Origin: Candidatus Iainarchaeum sp.
GTDB taxonomy: Archaea; Iainarchaeota; Iainarchaeia; Iainarchaeales; DTGL01
Assembly: GCA_026413945.1 (NCBI GenBank)
Contig: JAOAJX010000001.1
Location: forward strand, 96,001 to 160,000
Reading direction: 5' to 3'
Length of the DNA stretch: 64,000 nt
Position 1 is the first letter of the stretch. Every line of letters begins with the position of its first letter. The notes under the pieces were generated by a model. The model worked only from the letters and a program-made list of their open reading frames with translations. It did not search any database and was not told where the DNA came from. Both the position numbers and the translations under genes were made by a program. Positions 2-9,124 of the stretch are shown here, piece after piece.

Positions 2-295
2 ACAATAGGAGTCTGCACTTCACAAGGCATAAAACACTGCTATTTTAGGTATGTCCCATTTTGCTACATGTACGGCGCAATAAATTTTATAAGCGAGTAT
101 GCTGCAAAGGAGTCCCTTAAGGAAAATCATATAGGCCCGGAATTTGAGGATCTTGACGTTGAAAAAAACCGCGCAAAGTATGGCCGAATAAAAGGGCCTC
201 AATGTTTTGGGTGCAAGTACAACAACGTTTGCGAAGGCATCTTCAGAGAATATGCTGAGAAGCGCGGTTTTGAGGAACTTGTGCCAGTACCGTGA
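2..295 (+). CDS. Radical SAM protein, HxsC-like, C-terminal part (5' truncated by window edge)
   Basis: Frame open from base 2 (TIGVCTSQGIKHCYFRYVPFCYM...). Shares PxC, CxxCx5C (CFGCKYNNVC) and the C-terminal YxxxxGxEExxP signature with the radical SAMs at 4760-8353. Confidence 0.75.
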   Translation, partial: TIGVCTSQGIKHCYFRYVPFCYMYGAINFISEYAAKESLKENHIGPEFEDLDVEKNRAKYGRIKGPQCFGCKYNNVCEGIFREYAEKRGFEELVPVP

Positions 296-308
296 GCAAG
301 GTGTTTTA

Positions 309-764
309 GTGGAACTAAAAATATTAGTTAAGGCCTTAAGAAGGAAAGAGTTTGCAATTCCGATAGCTTTCCTTTTGTTCCTTTTGTTTTTTGGAGCAAT
401 AATGCTTCTGGTTGATACTACAAAAAATGTTAAAAACATTGAAAGAGCAAGGATTTCTGGCTGCGTTTTGGAGTATGGGCCTTGGCAATGTATTGATGAT
501 AAAATAGCTGTACCTTTTTATAATTCCGGGGTTTTAGACATAACAATGGTAAGACTTAGATTTCCTGTAAGAAATGGCTGGAATGTGTATGAGGCAAGTG
601 GCATGCTCAGAAAAGGCGAGGCTGGAACATTGCTAACTGAAAGCTGTGCAGATGCGATAATGGAAGGCACAAAAGTTGAGTGGTGTTGCTCAAGCGATTG
701 CTTTATCAGTGACCTTAAAAACCCAAACCAAAATGTTTTAGTAAAAATAAATTCTTTTGGTTAA
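309..764 (+). CDS. Membrane-anchored pilin-like hypothetical protein
   Basis: GTG at 309 after AAGGTG. Basic N-terminus (RRK), one hydrophobic helix, then a Cys-containing domain with NSGxxDI as in archaeal pilins. Confidence 0.5.
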   Translation: MELKILVKALRRKEFAIPIAFLLFLLFFGAIMLLVDTTKNVKNIERARISGCVLEYGPWQCIDDKIAVPFYNSGVLDITMVRLRFPVRNGWNVYEASGMLRKGEAGTLLTESCADAIMEGTKVEWCCSSDCFISDLKNPNQNVLVKINSFG

Positions 765-765
765 T

Positions 766-1404
766 ATGGCAAAAATATTTTTTGGAGATGAACACCTTCC
801 GGTTTGTGAGACAAATATCGAAGCCATAAGTAAAAACAGCAAAGCGGTATTAAGCTTTACTTTTAGAGAAGTTTTTCAACAAAAAACATTTGCGGAGAAT
901 GCTAAACTGCTTGAGATTTGCCTAAAAGCAATGAAATATAAGGGAATAAGATTTTTTAGTGTGCCTTTTTGTGTCGCTGAGCCAGAAAAGGTTTCTGTTT
1001 TCAATAGCTTAGCTCTTAAGGTAAAGAGTGGGTTCTACTTTGAAGGTGCATATATGGTTCCTTTAGATAGTTGACCAGGAAAATTACCTGCCTTAAAAGT
1101 ATACGATTGCTGTTTCAGACGCGGTTTATTCGATGTATTAATGGCAATTAATTCTTTTAGTCATTTTAAGGATCCGGCTAAGAGTGTCATTGAAGCTAAG
1201 AGAGTATTGAAAGAAGGCGGCTTATTTATTTTGGTGGAAAATGAAATGGCTGAAAGAGATTTTGGGAGTAGAGATGGCTTTGATTCACATAATAGCCTAA
1301 AAAAGAAGCAGATAAAGGAGTTATTTCTGAAAAATGGGTTCATGTTAAAGACACAAAGAAAGGTTAGGCCTTACTACTTTTTGATGTTTGAGAAGGTTAA
1401 TTAA
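766..1404 (+). pseudogene. Degenerate class I SAM-dependent methyltransferase interrupted by one in-frame TGA (1072-1074)
   Basis: ORFs 757-1074 and 1141-1404 are in the same frame with no other stop between them. Read-through gives ...GAYMVPLDS*PGKL...FDVLMAINSFSHFKDP...EAKRVLKEGG, matching methyltransferase motifs. Confidence 0.6.
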
Positions 1405-1449
1405 CAAGCTGAGATGCTTGGGATTTCGCTCAAGCACCTACTTTATAAT

Positions 1450-2391
1450 TTAGCTTAGCAAAATAGCAATTGCGCATTGGCATTGAATGTCTTCTATTTT
1501 TTCGTATTTTTTCAAAATAGCATCTTTTACTTCTTTTTCTTCTTTTTGCTCTAGTAGTGGCTTTGCCTCACAAAGCTTCTTTATAAGCAGATAATCACGA
1601 ACAAAACATAAGTCTTTTGTTTTTTCTTTAATAATTATTTCTCCCATGGTATTGCAAATATTTTGTTCAAAAATGGCAGCCACCTTGCTGTTTTCTTTTC
1701 TGAGTTCTGAAAGGTTTTTGTCAAAAATGTTTAGTGCGGTTGTTGCTTTTGTTTTGAGTTTTCTTAGTTGCTCAGAAGGATCAGTTTTGTCAATTTTTAT
1801 TTCAAGTATTTTGAGTGCAATGTTTTTATCCAAAAAGTTTAAATCTCCGCATTCTTTCTCCGCTGTGACATAGCCGTACAAAGAGTCTAAGTCGTCTTCA
1901 GCGAGTTGTTTCTTTTTAAAATATTCTCTCCAGTAAGTCAGGGCTTTTGAAAACTTTGAGTTATCTAAGATTCTTTGCTTAATTTCTATCCAATTACTAT
2001 CTCTATTAAGCACTCTGATGCTAAAGCAGTATCCACCAAGTACTTTGTTTGGGTCACAAGATTCGGGCACCACACATTTTTTTTCAAACGATGCTTCTAT
2101 TAGCTTTATATGTTCTGGTTTTGTTTCTGCCAACCTTCGTTTAGCTTCAGTATCGCCTGCGAGAAAGGCAAATGTCGATTTCACAACAATGGTGTTGTGT
2201 ATTGCCTGAGGGGTGTTTTCATCAGATAATTTCATAGGTATTTCATCATAGCTGTAAAGGTAAACTTCATAACCTTTTTTTGTTGGATTTATTAGGTGCA
2301 TAATAACAAGTATTAAGGAGATAGCAAAAATTAGCAGCAGTAAAAGCATAACTAAGAACTTCTTTCTGCGATTTAGCAGAATCACGGCCAA
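1450..2391 (-). CDS. Hypothetical protein, N-terminal membrane anchor with Cys-containing helical domain
   Basis: 313-aa ORF; RRKK followed by a long hydrophobic run; last gene of the minus-strand hxs run. Confidence 0.7.
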   Translation of the reverse strand: MAVILLNRRKKFLVMLLLLLIFAISLILVIMHLINPTKKGYEVYLYSYDEIPMKLSDENTPQAIHNTIVVKSTFAFLAGDTEAKRRLAETKPEHIKLIEASFEKKCVVPESCDPNKVLGGYCFSIRVLNRDSNWIEIKQRILDNSKFSKALTYWREYFKKKQLAEDDLDSLYGYVTAEKECGDLNFLDKNIALKILEIKIDKTDPSEQLRKLKTKATTALNIFDKNLSELRKENSKVAAIFEQNICNTMGEIIIKEKTKDLCFVRDYLLIKKLCEAKPLLEQKEEKEVKDAILKKYEKIEDIQCQCAIAILLS

Positions 2392-7389: not shown

Positions 7390-7390
7390 A

Positions 7391-8353
7391 TCAATACTCC
7401 TGCAGCTTAAATTCTTCTGTGGTAATTTGTTTTCCTTCAATAGGCTTGAATTCTGAAAAGCCCCTTACACGAGTATATTCCTTGAAAGGGCCAACGCAGA
7501 GTAAAAAATATTTGCATTTTTTGCAATTTGCGCCTTTGCTTCTGTACTTCTGCCTGTTTTTTTGTATGTCTGCCCTGAACTTTGGCCCAATCAAAATTGT
7601 GTTTGTGACAGTGAGCTCAGACATAATGTTTGTGTAGCTTGGCAATATGCAAGGATACATATTATGCAAAAAAGGCTTTCCACCCTCTTTGAGTAGAATA
7701 TCACACGCCTCTTTGATGTAAGAAGCAGCTTCATCTATCCTTGGAACCATTCGCTCGAAATCCTGTTTAGCGAAGCCGTCTGGTATTGCAAAATTTAAGT
7801 GATAGCTTTTGGTGTTCTTCTTGAACTTGAGAAGGAAAGCAGCCATTTCAGGCAGTTTTTCATAATTGTAGGTGTTTATTACCGTGCTTGTGCGCTTTTC
7901 AATGCCAAGATCTTCAAGATTTTTCAAGCCAGCAACTTTGTCATCGAAAGAACCTTTTGTTTGCGTAAGGAAATCCTCTAATTTTGCATTTGGCGCGTGT
8001 ATTGATACGAGTACTCGGTTTACACCTAAATCAAAAATTTTCTTCGCATAGTTACGGTACTTAAGCATGCAGCCATTTGTCTGGATCTCAATGACTTCAA
8101 AACCAAGCTTTTTTGCATATCTTATTGCCTCAAACAAATCTTTCCTTATAGTTGGCTCGCCGCCGGAAAAAGATATTATGTCTGCGCCGCATCTCTTGGC
8201 AAACTCCAAATCCTTTTTTATTTCCAACCAGCTTTTTGCGCGGCCATCTGAAACAAGCTTGTGGCCTACCGAGCAAAAAATGCAGCGCTGATTACATTGC
8301 CAATTAACCAGAATTTCAACCTTTTTAAGCCCAATTTCAGCTCTTTCATTCAT
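7391..8353 (-). CDS. Radical SAM protein (HxsC-like paralogue)
   Basis: CNQRCIFC, SGGEPT, IQTNG, YPC, CKKCKYFLLC, YxxxRGxxEFxPI. Confidence 0.85.
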   Translation of the reverse strand: MNERAEIGLKKVEILVNWQCNQRCIFCSVGHKLVSDGRAKSWLEIKKDLEFAKRCGADIISFSGGEPTIRKDLFEAIRYAKKLGFEVIEIQTNGCMLKYRNYAKKIFDLGVNRVLVSIHAPNAKLEDFLTQTKGSFDDKVAGLKNLEDLGIEKRTSTVINTYNYEKLPEMAAFLLKFKKNTKSYHLNFAIPDGFAKQDFERMVPRIDEAASYIKEACDILLKEGGKPFLHNMYPCILPSYTNIMSELTVTNTILIGPKFRADIQKNRQKYRSKGANCKKCKYFLLCVGPFKEYTRVRGFSEFKPIEGKQITTEEFKLQEY

Positions 8354-8371
8354 TTTCAATACCGCATAAAA

Positions 8372-8608
8372 TCAAGGTGAAGCGCCCTTTATTAGGCTCA
8401 AGACATAATTGCAGAACTCAAGGGTTAACTTTTCAGCAGAAACAGCCTCTGTTTTCATTGTAATGTGAAAATATCTGCCGGACTCTTTTTTTGTTATTTT
8501 TGCGCCTTTAACCTCTTTAAGCGCCTTATTAACTATTTTTCTTGGGTAAAAGGCCTTTGAAAGGTTTAATGTTGCTTTTTTTCCATCTTCTTTTACTTCC
8601 AATAACAT
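8372..8608 (-). CDS. Small HxsD-like protein
   Basis: LSKAFYP...LEFCNYVL resembles the HxsD pattern; GGGTG RBS before the ATG at 8608. Confidence 0.6.
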   Translation of the reverse strand: MLLEVKEDGKKATLNLSKAFYPRKIVNKALKEVKGAKITKKESGRYFHITMKTEAVSAEKLTLEFCNYVLSLIKGASP

Positions 8609-8641
8609 TTTAAGCACCCTGCATGGGCAAATGCTAAACCT

Positions 8642-9124
8642 TTAGCCCTTTGGCTTCTTAAGCCCTTTTGCCTTTTCAGGAGTCCACGGCTTAGCTATGC
8701 CTTCTGGGTCATCTATGAACAAATCATCAGTTGGCATTTTTATGTCGGCTGCTTTTTCTTTAATATTTTCCTCCTCAGCGCATTGGGGGCAGTAGTTTTC
8801 AGTTAGGTTTGTTGCTAAGGCACGCTTTATTATTGCCTCTCTAATCGGCTGGTTTCTTGCTGCTTGTATCGCATAAGCAGCATAGTTTATCAATTCATCA
8901 TGGAGTTTCAAAGCAAGGCTTTCAAGCTTCTTTCTGCTAAGCGCCTCTTCTTTCGGCTTTATCAATATTTTAATCTCTTTTTGCGGGTCGCCATCAAGTA
9001 TAAAATATGCCCTATCAAGAAGAACGTAGCAGGCAGCATAAACAACTTCAAGCGGGAAAACTTTTGGGTTTATGCTTAATATTGCTTCGTTTTTATCTGG
9101 AAATAGTTCAATGCCATGTACCAT
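8642..9124 (-). CDS. hxsD: His-Xaa-Ser system protein HxsD
   Basis: INPKVFPLEVVYAACYVLLDRAYFILDG...DELINY...IREAIIKRAL; AGGTGAT RBS before 9124. Confidence 0.75.
   Translation of the reverse strand: MVHGIELFPDKNEAILSINPKVFPLEVVYAACYVLLDRAYFILDGDPQKEIKILIKPKEEALSRKKLESLALKLHDELINYAAYAIQAARNQPIREAIIKRALATNLTENYCPQCAEEENIKEKAADIKMPTDDLFIDDPEGIAKPWTPEKAKGLKKPKG

Follow-up and report, generated by a model that had tools for sequence, protein, structure and literature searches.

The window analysed here, a 64,000-nucleotide stretch of Candidatus Iainarchaeum sp. (Iainarchaeota; positions 96001-160000 of contig C11 of the source genome, G000), opens on a gene cluster of the His-Xaa-Ser (HxS) system, Hxs for short, whose host is a DPANN archaeon. 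We read this cluster, which spans about 19 kb in two convergent units and extends about 4.2 kb upstream of the window, as an expanded, DPANN-archaeal HXS-type maturation system, possibly antiviral, for an exported or membrane-anchored HxS-repeat protein, HxsA, that would be processed by an A24 (prepilin-type) peptidase. We give this reading as a whole a probability of roughly 45%. The part of it that concerns biogenesis, that is, modification, membrane insertion and A24 cleavage, is probably right; the antiviral role, argued by homology, is put forward tentatively. The source genome is small (948,649 bp in 21 contigs, 92% complete), and the proposal, made in a preliminary description of this DNA, that a small-genome archaeon carries an Hxs-type system is supported both by profile matches and by the precursor.

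Judged by family profiles and by its precursor, the cluster belongs to the His-Xaa-Ser system: HxsB and an HxsD_rel protein exceed their curated cut-offs, a match to HxsC is nearly full length, and HxsA holds 14 HxS units. HxsB, encoded upstream of the window, scores 429.2 bits against TIGR03978 (cut-off 370) and aligns with positions 2-466 of 466, and an HxsD-like protein of 81 aa passes NF038315 (HxsD_rel) with 43.3 bits against a cut-off of 41. The top match of the radical S-adenosylmethionine (SAM) enzyme D6 is HxsC (TIGR03977), at 203.8 bits (cut-off 267.9) and over positions 31-289 of 292, while its score against HxsC4 is 96.8 bits; the HxsC cut-off is exceeded nowhere in the G000 genome. 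The 170-aa HxsD aligns with positions 3-87 of the 90 of TIGR03976 at 40.2 bits (cut-off 50), and its orthologues in related loci are 47-79% identical. D8, a 617-aa SPASM enzyme inside the window, was considered as a candidate HxsB and ruled out, with only 61.3 bits on the HxsB model against 99.9 bits for its best match, PapB. The true HxsB and the dedicated A24 peptidase were missed in the preliminary description because both lie outside the window.

Nine tightly packed open reading frames (ORFs) make up the minus-strand unit, which runs from 9154 down to 1450 with intergenic gaps of -16 to 58 bp, in the order HxsD, HxsD-like, radical SAM enzyme D3, DUF483-like D4, radical SAM enzyme D5, HxsC-like D6, HxsA, PapB-like D8 and membrane protein D9. 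Converging on it, the plus-strand unit comprises U2, HxsB, the A24 peptidase and the 5' part of U5, all upstream of the window (in a 14-kb stretch, L010), followed in the window by the C-terminus of U5, the pilin-like U6 and two methyltransferase fragments. ORF positions and family matches thus bear out the run from hxsD to the membrane protein and the converging second unit, as previously described. The earlier count of at least five radical SAM genes in more than 9 kb was real but understated: with the upstream part there are seven in about 19 kb (HxsB, the HxsC-like D6, the four HxsC/HxsC4-like paralogues U2, U5, D3 and D5, and the PapB-like D8), against 15 Radical_SAM matches genome-wide. 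The features of the cluster are as follows.

L010, upstream of the window, plus strand: radical SAM enzyme U2 (310 aa; HxsC4, 152 bits)
L010:10746-12251, upstream of the window, plus strand: HxsB (TIGR03978, 429.2 bits, cut-off 370)
L010, upstream of the window, plus strand: A24 peptidase (356 aa; PF01478, 36.7 bits)
2..295, plus strand: C-terminal 97 aa of radical SAM enzyme U5 (whole protein 304 aa, start at G000:C11:95381; HxsC4, 156.2 bits)
309..764, plus strand: pilin-like U6 (151 aa, GTG start; modelled as a helix plus beta-sandwich)
757-1074 and 1141-1404, plus strand: methyltransferase remnant (about 310 aa originally; by alignment to an intact gene of G004)
1450..2391, minus strand: N-terminally anchored membrane protein D9 (313 aa; no family match)
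2434..4287, minus strand: PapB-like radical SAM/SPASM enzyme D8 (617 aa; NF047865, 99.9 bits, cut-off 340)
4303..4701, minus strand: HxsA precursor (132 aa; 14 HxS repeats)
4760..5602, minus strand: HxsC-like radical SAM enzyme D6 (280 aa; TIGR03977, 203.8 bits, cut-off 267.9)
5587..6492, minus strand: radical SAM paralogue D5 (301 aa; PF04055, 96.7 bits)
6505..7389, minus strand: DUF483-like D4 (294 aa, the ORF reaching 7440; PF04467, 18.5 bits, cut-off 25)
7391..8359, minus strand: radical SAM paralogue D3, HxsC4-like (322 aa; PF04055, 92.9 bits)
8372..8617, minus strand: HxsD-like protein (81 aa; NF038315 HxsD_rel, 43.3 bits, cut-off 41)
8642..9154, minus strand: HxsD (170 aa; TIGR03976, 40.2 bits, cut-off 50)

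The precursor is as first described: its 14 HxS units form a single, unbroken run of 42 residues, and HxsA is the only ORF of the 948,649-bp genome with such an array. At the DNA level the repeat has a 9-bp period, with 13.2 copies and 84% matches. hxsA starts 58 bp downstream of the D6 gene, so that precursor and maturases are clustered. The protein consists of a charged N-region, an EE(K/R)G-x-I-S-K motif, a hydrophobic helix, the 14 repeats and a short Cys-containing tail. It matches HxsA4 (NF038313) at 46.6 bits (cut-off 55) and HxsA3 (NF038309) at 38.9 bits (cut-off 65), the latter over positions 2-79 of 81, that is, leader plus repeats; these were the only HxsA models matched at E <= 0.01, the canonical one giving nothing. 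The N-terminal block of 68 residues has a mean identity of 81% and includes an invariant Gly, the hydrophobic helix and then PEV-x-A-A-H. The Gly, at alignment position 15 (G30 of HxsA), is invariant in 11 of 11 sequences and is also retained in every further HxsA N-terminus printed from related loci, whereas the residue before it is basic throughout the host family, f1, but T, N, D or E in L056 and L060-L062. About 30 aa make up the N-region, and the hydrophobic stretch begins only after six polar residues (SISKHK) that follow the Gly.

Long forms of HxsA, of about 490 aa, are found at L028:7259-8725, L090:575-2065 and L092:326-1792; in these the leader and HxS repeats are followed by four-residue H-S-S-C repeats and then by a C-terminal domain of about 340 aa that has no Pfam match. 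HSSC repeats are present in L064 and L066 too, and one metagenome contig carries two HxsA genes in tandem (L108:2-514 and 626-1141). Contigs often end within or right after the HxS repeat (L049, L053, L055, L091, L094, L100, L104 and others). The repeat seems to break assemblies, and HxsA is thus probably under-counted in metagenome-assembled genomes (MAGs), as in G001, whose contig stops after the HxsC-like gene.

Archaeal class III signal peptides are handled by A24 peptidases of the PibD, FlaK and EppA type. For the A24 peptidase of the cluster, PF01478 gives 36.7 bits where 26.5 are required, and Arc_PepC 28.5 where 23.4 are required. Its catalytic aspartates are D20 and D76, of which D76 belongs to a G-D-x-K motif; both are conserved in all 21 Hxs-linked A24 proteins. 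An A24 gene lies no more than 3 kb from HxsB in 21 of the 24 unique other loci, rearranged gene orders included. In a tree, the 21 Hxs-linked proteins are set apart from 12 housekeeping ones (two orthogroups of six) by a branch with a Shimodaira-Hasegawa-like approximate likelihood ratio test (SH-aLRT) value of 99. Moreover, there are two A24 genes in G013 and G028, in which no Hxs gene was found, three in G000, G004 and G053, which have one system, and four in G009, which has two. On these phylogenetic and copy-number grounds the Hxs-linked A24 proteins form a clade of their own that is dedicated to the system, with a copy number that tracks the number of systems per genome.

The RG-SIS sequence of HxsA resembles the motif of the canonical pilins of G000, SKG-(I/Q)S directly before the hydrophobic run, yet it is non-canonical. 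A model of the complex between the A24 peptidase and the HxsA N-terminal block scored 0.64, and the best of three controls 0.00; the mark for this score is reached by 58 of 80 solved complexes and by 2 of 110 mismatched pairs. At least 68% of the contacts were shared between runs, with a predicted local distance difference test (pLDDT) value of at least 55 for the partner. The modelled interface includes D20 and G75-D76-K78, and D76 contacts alignment position 17, two residues after the Gly. The model would thus place the invariant Gly motif of HxsA at the catalytic aspartates; it supports binding without proving it, because a hydrophobic helix on a membrane protein may score high generically.

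Our genome survey covered 61 related genomes, G000 among them, and 14 control genomes. HxsB exceeded the cut-off in 11 of the 61, all of family f1, and in none of the controls; in three genomes of families f21 and f28 it fell just below. The HxsA N-terminal profile matched 12 of the 61 genomes. Full-length D6 orthologues (51-78% identity) were found in 9 of the 12 other f1 genomes, and elsewhere only weak radical SAM similarity. Where an f1 genome gave no match, it belongs to the less complete ones (84-87%) or its contigs break off at the repeat. HxsA and HxsB are each present twice in G009, G010, G011 and G012, and radical SAM matches to the HxsC query at E <= 1e-10 number 17 in G010 and 15 in G012. 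Across the phylum, 0 of 215 genomes pass the HxsA3 cut-off, and 17 of 215 have HxsA3-like matches below it (f1 5/12, f21 10/23, f28 1/2). Metagenome contigs add 28 loci, and none of the 44 pattern matches in viral contigs was confirmed as an HxsA relative. Over 17 loci, related contigs bear titles of Candidatus Iainarchaeum or Diapherotrites MAGs, with three more contigs assigned by label to Aenigmatarchaeota and one to Nanoarchaeota, which makes the host a DPANN archaeon. Among sequencing runs, one DNA run, probably that of the source metagenome, was listed as a match, and no RNA run.

Synteny, assessed by BLASTP of all ORFs against the G000 proteins, shows two recurrent units in the Iainarchaeal family. 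One consists of U2, HxsB, the A24 peptidase and U5, then the pilin-like U6, and the other of HxsD, the HxsD-like protein, the HxsC-like enzyme, HxsA and D8, then D9. A minimal cassette occurs in three genomes of the two other families (f21 and f28), with the A24 peptidase, HxsD, HxsB, a short HxsA of 2-3 HxS units and one generic radical SAM enzyme, the HxsD-like gene being present in two of the three. There is a natural series from the minimal form (2-3 HxS units, two radical SAM enzymes) to the expanded one (10-27 units, at least seven radical SAM enzymes), which could serve to map enzymes to modifications.

The pathway that we infer from the observed gene content, conservation, co-occurrences and dedicated peptidase clade, its cleavage site, order of steps, chemistry and function included, would begin in the cytoplasm. 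There HxsB, the HxsC-like enzyme and the four HxsC/HxsC4-like paralogues would modify the HxS array with the assistance of the two HxsD-type proteins, and the PapB-like D8 would act on the Cys tail, probably forming thioether-type links. The modified HxsA would enter the membrane in the manner of a type IV pilin, and the A24 peptidase of the cluster would cut on the cytoplasmic side, behind the invariant Gly, and so take off its N-region. The His/Ser array with its modifications would then stay displayed on the cell envelope or be released from it; its most likely role, by homology with the E. coli HXS system, would be that of an envelope barrier to the entry of viral DNA. In a bolder version, which we hold to be doubtful, a prepilin-type peptidase was recruited as the dedicated leader peptidase of a radical SAM maturation pathway, and HxsA would be a pilin-like subunit or anchor on the DPANN envelope, bearing a His/Ser ladder crosslinked by radical SAM enzymes and a thioether-locked Cys tail, with up to eight radical SAM orthogroups involved.

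Several points weigh against this pathway or parts of it. HxsB is present in 10 of the 12 other f1 genomes, a near-universal presence that would suit a lineage trait better than a sporadic defence gene, and PADLOC, whose 2023 library has no HXS model, returned only generic viperin-type radical SAM similarity at 20-65 bits. The matches to HxsC, HxsD, HxsA3 and HxsA4 all lie under the curated cut-offs. Pfam reports no family in HxsA at E <= 0.01, hence no peptidoglycan-binding domain, unlike in E. coli HxsA. As for the peptidase, 3 of the 24 HxsB loci have no A24 gene nearby, and the HxsA motif departs from the canonical class III signal (a short charged N-region, [K/R]-G at the cleavage site and a hydrophobic helix from +1) in its N-region of about 30 aa, its six polar residues and its variable residue before the Gly. 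The controls of the complex model were unrelated proteins and the partner is mostly a hydrophobic helix, which may have inflated the score. Alternatively, the conserved leader might serve for recognition by HxsB or HxsD, and the conserved PEV-A-A-A that follows the helix might be cut by signal peptidase I. Finally, the pilin-like U6 is an alternative substrate of the A24 peptidase, which we rank second because the position before its helix is not conserved (G, A, F or L).

U6 is repeatedly found next to U5. Its AlphaFold2 (AF2) model consists of a helix (residues 2-38) followed by eight strands that form a beta-sandwich (pLDDT 83.8), and the protein has six conserved Cys residues. The top Foldseek match is 8fk7_A, from an archaeal type IV pilus (E 1.0e-3, TM 0.37-0.40), followed by FlaF/FlaG at about 5e-3, and on the model we regard U6 as pilin-like, a borderline assignment. 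Beyond HxsD the window contains a giant surface protein, Cys-rich in its N-terminal region and with Ig-like domains (Big_3_3), and, just past it, a type IV pilus assembly locus (12976-22269, minus strand).

9225..12941, plus strand, divergent from HxsD: giant secreted surface protein (1238 aa; Big_3_3, 47.6 bits; association only)
12976-13836 and 13841-14710, minus strand: T2SSF platform proteins
14664-16949, minus strand: T2SSE ATPase

Homologues of the N-terminal region of the 1238-aa protein lie beside Hxs genes in many related loci, mostly divergent from HxsD. Also in the pilus locus are a 679-aa fn3/Ig-like protein and small ORFs whose N-termini are of class III type, with SKG ahead of a hydrophobic run. 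On the other side of the cluster, upstream of the plus-strand unit (L010:7205-9738, G000:C11:89205-91738), lie genes for a membrane protein with thioredoxin-like domains and for a fibre-like secreted protein of 430 aa, the latter kept 5' of U2 in G004 and G002 with 61% identity.

These surroundings bear on a different reading, in which HxsA would be part of a surface structure for adhesion or metal binding that is tied to type IV pili and serves attachment to host cells or minerals, or metal capture, rather than defence. His-rich repeats bind metals, the type IV pilus set (two T2SSF proteins, the T2SSE ATPase and pilin-like ORFs) is at hand at 12976-22269, U6 recurs beside U5, the giant surface protein stands beside HxsD in many loci, and the system is near-universal in family f1. 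In L052, L094 and L095, moreover, pilus machinery lies co-oriented directly upstream of the Hxs genes. These three loci represent only two independent lineages, however, and other loci with long flanks have no pilus genes; we thus rejected the pilus machinery as a core part of the system. Moreover, metal binding by His repeats alone would not require seven radical SAM enzymes, and the fibre itself is hypothetical. We consider this alternative unlikely.

A further alternative turns on the tail of HxsA and on D8. The best match of D8, PapB (NF047865, 99.9 bits against a cut-off of 340), covers positions 8-327 of 330, and about 180 aa are added at the C-terminus of D8. In Pfam, D8 matches Radical_SAM and Fer4_12 and not SPASM, and an Atlas feature search with the C-terminal extension turned up nothing beyond weak, SPASM-like leads (0.93, 136 shared features). 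Nothing informative came from Pfam searches with the ends of D8, D9, U6, a 105-aa fragment and the fused long HxsA forms, and phmmer found no match to D8 among PDB sequences at E <= 0.001. We tallied the presence of Cys in or after the repeats against that of a D8-like gene within 4 kb over 24 HxsA genes, that of G000 included, of which 20 could be scored, the other four being cut off by contig ends. Both were present in 13 loci and neither in five loci and one degenerate copy; one locus, with a fused long form, had Cys and no D8, and none had D8 and no Cys. The loci are related, so that this count overstates their independence; a sister pair nevertheless differs, L036 having both the Cys tail and D8 and L030 neither. 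From this co-occurrence we infer that D8 acts on the Cys tail of HxsA. D9, which has no family match in NCBIfam or Pfam, adjoins D8 in nine related loci (L023, L026, L027, L032, L034, L064, L065, L067 and L088). When the loci of G004 and G002, of the same genus, are compared with the window, D8 is 31-56% and D9 22-44% identical, and most neighbours are 70-90% identical; with values so far below those of its neighbours the tail module turns over fast, which suggests that the cassette was replaced or that it diversified fast. Together, Cys tail and PapB-like enzyme may be viewed as a second, separable module.

A hypervariable Cys tail paired with a PapB-like enzyme would also suit a free, secreted ribosomally synthesised and post-translationally modified peptide (RiPP), in which the N-region would be the leader and the product a small polycyclic His/Ser/Cys peptide with antimicrobial or metallophore activity. 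The leader-plus-core layout of HxsA, the two SPASM-type maturases and several further radical SAM enzymes, and the lack of an anchoring domain in HxsA by Pfam are in keeping with such a product, and cleavage at a possible signal peptidase site, PEV-AAA after the helix, would free a peptide of about 75 aa. However, RiPP leader machinery does not usually include a conserved hydrophobic helix or a prepilin-type peptidase of its own, and the NCBIfam and Pfam scans recognised no transporter or immunity gene in the cluster. HxsA also behaves as a protein rather than a small peptide, because in several lineages (L028, L090, L092) it is fused to the domain of about 340 aa, and its characterised bacterial homologue, in the available text of the report on it, is a protein effector (PMC13128918). 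On these data, a protein that carries a pilin-like signal and is inserted into the membrane or exported is more probable than the free polycyclic RiPP that was first envisaged, and we regard the latter as distinctly unlikely.

The remaining question is whether the additional radical SAM enzymes are part of the system at all. Contig C11 encodes five HxsC-like paralogues, two of them upstream of the window, and all five have the motifs CxxxCxxC, GGEPT, PxC, CxxCx5C and Y..G at 25-40% identity to the first sequence; the PxC, CxxCx5C and Y-G tail noticed before are thus real features of every one of them. From their sequences they are old paralogues, and the four-Cys C-terminal motif probably binds a second Fe-S cluster. 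Against HxsC4 (NF038332, cut-off 500) all score below the cut-off (U5 156.2, U2 152, D3 136.1, D5 111.1 and D6 96.8 bits), U5 aligning end to end (positions 17-335 of 335), and on the HxsC model D5 and D3 reach 119 and 105 bits. A quick radical SAM tree of 71 rows from 18 loci, in which some long branches are unreliable, recovered the following orthogroups, along with several more groups beyond the clades that hold G000 genes.

HxsC orthogroup: 12 rows, SH-aLRT 100
U2 orthogroup: 12 rows, SH-aLRT 100
U5 orthogroup: 13 rows, SH-aLRT 95
D3 orthogroup: 7 rows, SH-aLRT 98
D5 orthogroup: 4 rows, SH-aLRT 99

U2, U5 and HxsC recur beside HxsA and HxsB in related loci, and the extra enzymes are diverged paralogues that, as had been proposed, recur next to HxS precursors in related genomes. 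No paralogue comes near a cofactor-enzyme cut-off, the MoaA and AhbD matches standing at 55-106 bits against 231-500. It is very improbable that the extra enzymes are cofactor or housekeeping proteins (MoaA-, heme- or NirJ-like) without relation to a small Hxs core that they adjoin, a view largely refuted already by the co-occurrence data: MoaA, AhbD and NirJ models do appear among the NCBIfam matches, but at 55-106 bits, far under their cut-offs of 231-650 and ranked below HxsC and HxsC4, and the paralogues have the HxsC-type C-terminal Cys motif in common and fall into conserved orthogroups that stay associated with HxsA and HxsB in different genomes and after rearrangements. U5 has 520 homologues at E <= 1e-10; among the best 120 of the 520, no named one has a label more specific than generic terms like 'radical SAM protein' or 'MoaA/NifB/PqqE/SkfB family radical SAM enzyme'. 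A phmmer search of PDB sequences with the HxsC-like D6 gave nothing at E <= 0.001. In organisms whose genomes measure about 1 Mb, close to half of the radical SAM repertoire is spent on one envelope protein, an investment that suggests a function at the core of DPANN life or of the interaction with viruses.

D3, D4 and D5 are accessory and have no homologue among the matches listed for the G002 locus, L027. D4 matches DUF483 (PF04467) at 18.5 bits, below the cut-off of 25 and through residues 110-130 alone, and an Atlas feature search links it at 0.95 to DUF483-bearing clusters, as a lead only. Its invariant columns are H180, C183 and C187 and its near-invariant ones C105 and C106, in the pattern GYPxCC...HxPCSxxC. 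D4-like genes recur near HxsA in other loci, and a database search with D4 gave only four relatives. Its AF2 model (pLDDT 84.5) gave nothing at E <= 0.001 with Foldseek against the PDB. Two candidates for its fold, from VIA-align in wide mode, were rejected: 2guk_B, of unknown function (Z 7.7, root-mean-square deviation 3.8, 104 residues), and NleE (Z 5.6), both of which cover residues 9-118 only and have Z values in the range that the tool calls common. The methyltransferase gene is intact in G004 and G003 (310-324 aa; in G004 at L023:7204-8133, PF08241, 70.6 bits), and no homologue is among the matches listed at the G002 locus. The fragments in the window align to residues 5-122 and 217-310 of the G004 protein, whose residues 123-216 have no counterpart in the window. 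By this alignment the gene is a pseudogene here, with an internal loss of about 94 residues that overlaps the domain (PF08241, residues 160-255 of the G004 protein).

The bacterial HxsABCD system was first defined bioinformatically (Haft and Basu, as cited in PMC9062424). The description of this DNA took that to be the state of knowledge, which has been superseded by the demonstration that HXS of E. coli is an anti-phage system that blocks the entry of phage DNA (Li et al., Nat Commun 2026; PMC13128918). According to the available part of that report, E. coli HxsA is an exported protein effector that is cleaved N-terminally, in a process that needs HxsB, HxsC and HxsD and follows a non-canonical route with a protease not identified there; its last HxS repeat carries a +8 Da modification of unexplained chemistry, and HxsC binds HxsD (PMC13128918). 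The same text places 99.7% of HXS systems in Pseudomonadota, with no mention of archaea, peptidases or pilins. We found no printed description of the archaeal variant in the literature on Hxs and radical SAM proteins and on DPANN His-rich proteins. That the system is undescribed holds, within that literature, for the archaeal expansion, but not for its families: variant models (HxsA3, HxsA4, HxsC4, HxsD_rel) are in NCBIfam, and HxsB homologues with DPANN labels (Iainarchaeum, Diapherotrites, Aenigmatarchaeota, Altiarchaeota) are, among the matches listed, already auto-named HxsB in public records.

With bacterial HXS, as far as the available descriptions go, the archaeal cluster has in common a clustered set of an HxS-repeat protein, the SPASM radical SAM enzyme HxsB, an HxsC-type enzyme with a second Cys cluster and a small HxsD, as well as an N-terminal export signal on HxsA, which in E. 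coli is processed non-canonically at its N-terminus. It differs in its archaeal host, in having 14 repeats rather than 5 and no peptidoglycan-binding domain, five HxsC-like enzymes rather than one and two HxsD-type proteins, in the addition of a PapB-like SPASM enzyme with a Cys tail, a DUF483-like protein, a pilin-like protein and a dedicated A24 peptidase, and in an arrangement in two convergent units in place of the bacterial order D-B-C-A. As to the NCBIfam variants, HxsD_rel is over its cut-off, HxsA3 spans leader and repeats, and HxsC4 aligns end to end with U5, whereas the scores for HxsA3 (38.9/65), HxsA4 (46.6/55) and HxsC4 (136-156/500) are all below cut-off. The PapB maturases of ranthipeptides and sactipeptides are likewise matched over the whole model, by D8, and Cys-bearing substrate tails co-occur with it; in contrast, D8 scores 99.9 bits against 340 and has the extension of about 180 aa, and the HxsA tails have no fixed motif of the Cys-x3-Asp type. 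Like the systems of class III signals and A24 peptidases, the cluster combines a peptidase with PF01478 and an archaeal C-terminal domain over cut-offs and both Asp residues with a substrate in which a charged N-region and a Gly precede a hydrophobic helix; unlike them, it has a separate peptidase clade inside a radical SAM cluster and a substrate with a long N-region and six polar residues from Gly to helix. Set against what the available sources already describe, namely the four core Hxs families and bacterial HXS defence, the main new point is the dedicated prepilin-type peptidase encoded in the cluster. The archaeal variant thus supplies a candidate class of protease and a clue to the cutting and export of HxS-repeat proteins; should bacteria follow the same principle, the protease behind the non-canonical cleavage of E. 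coli HxsA could be of the prepilin type.

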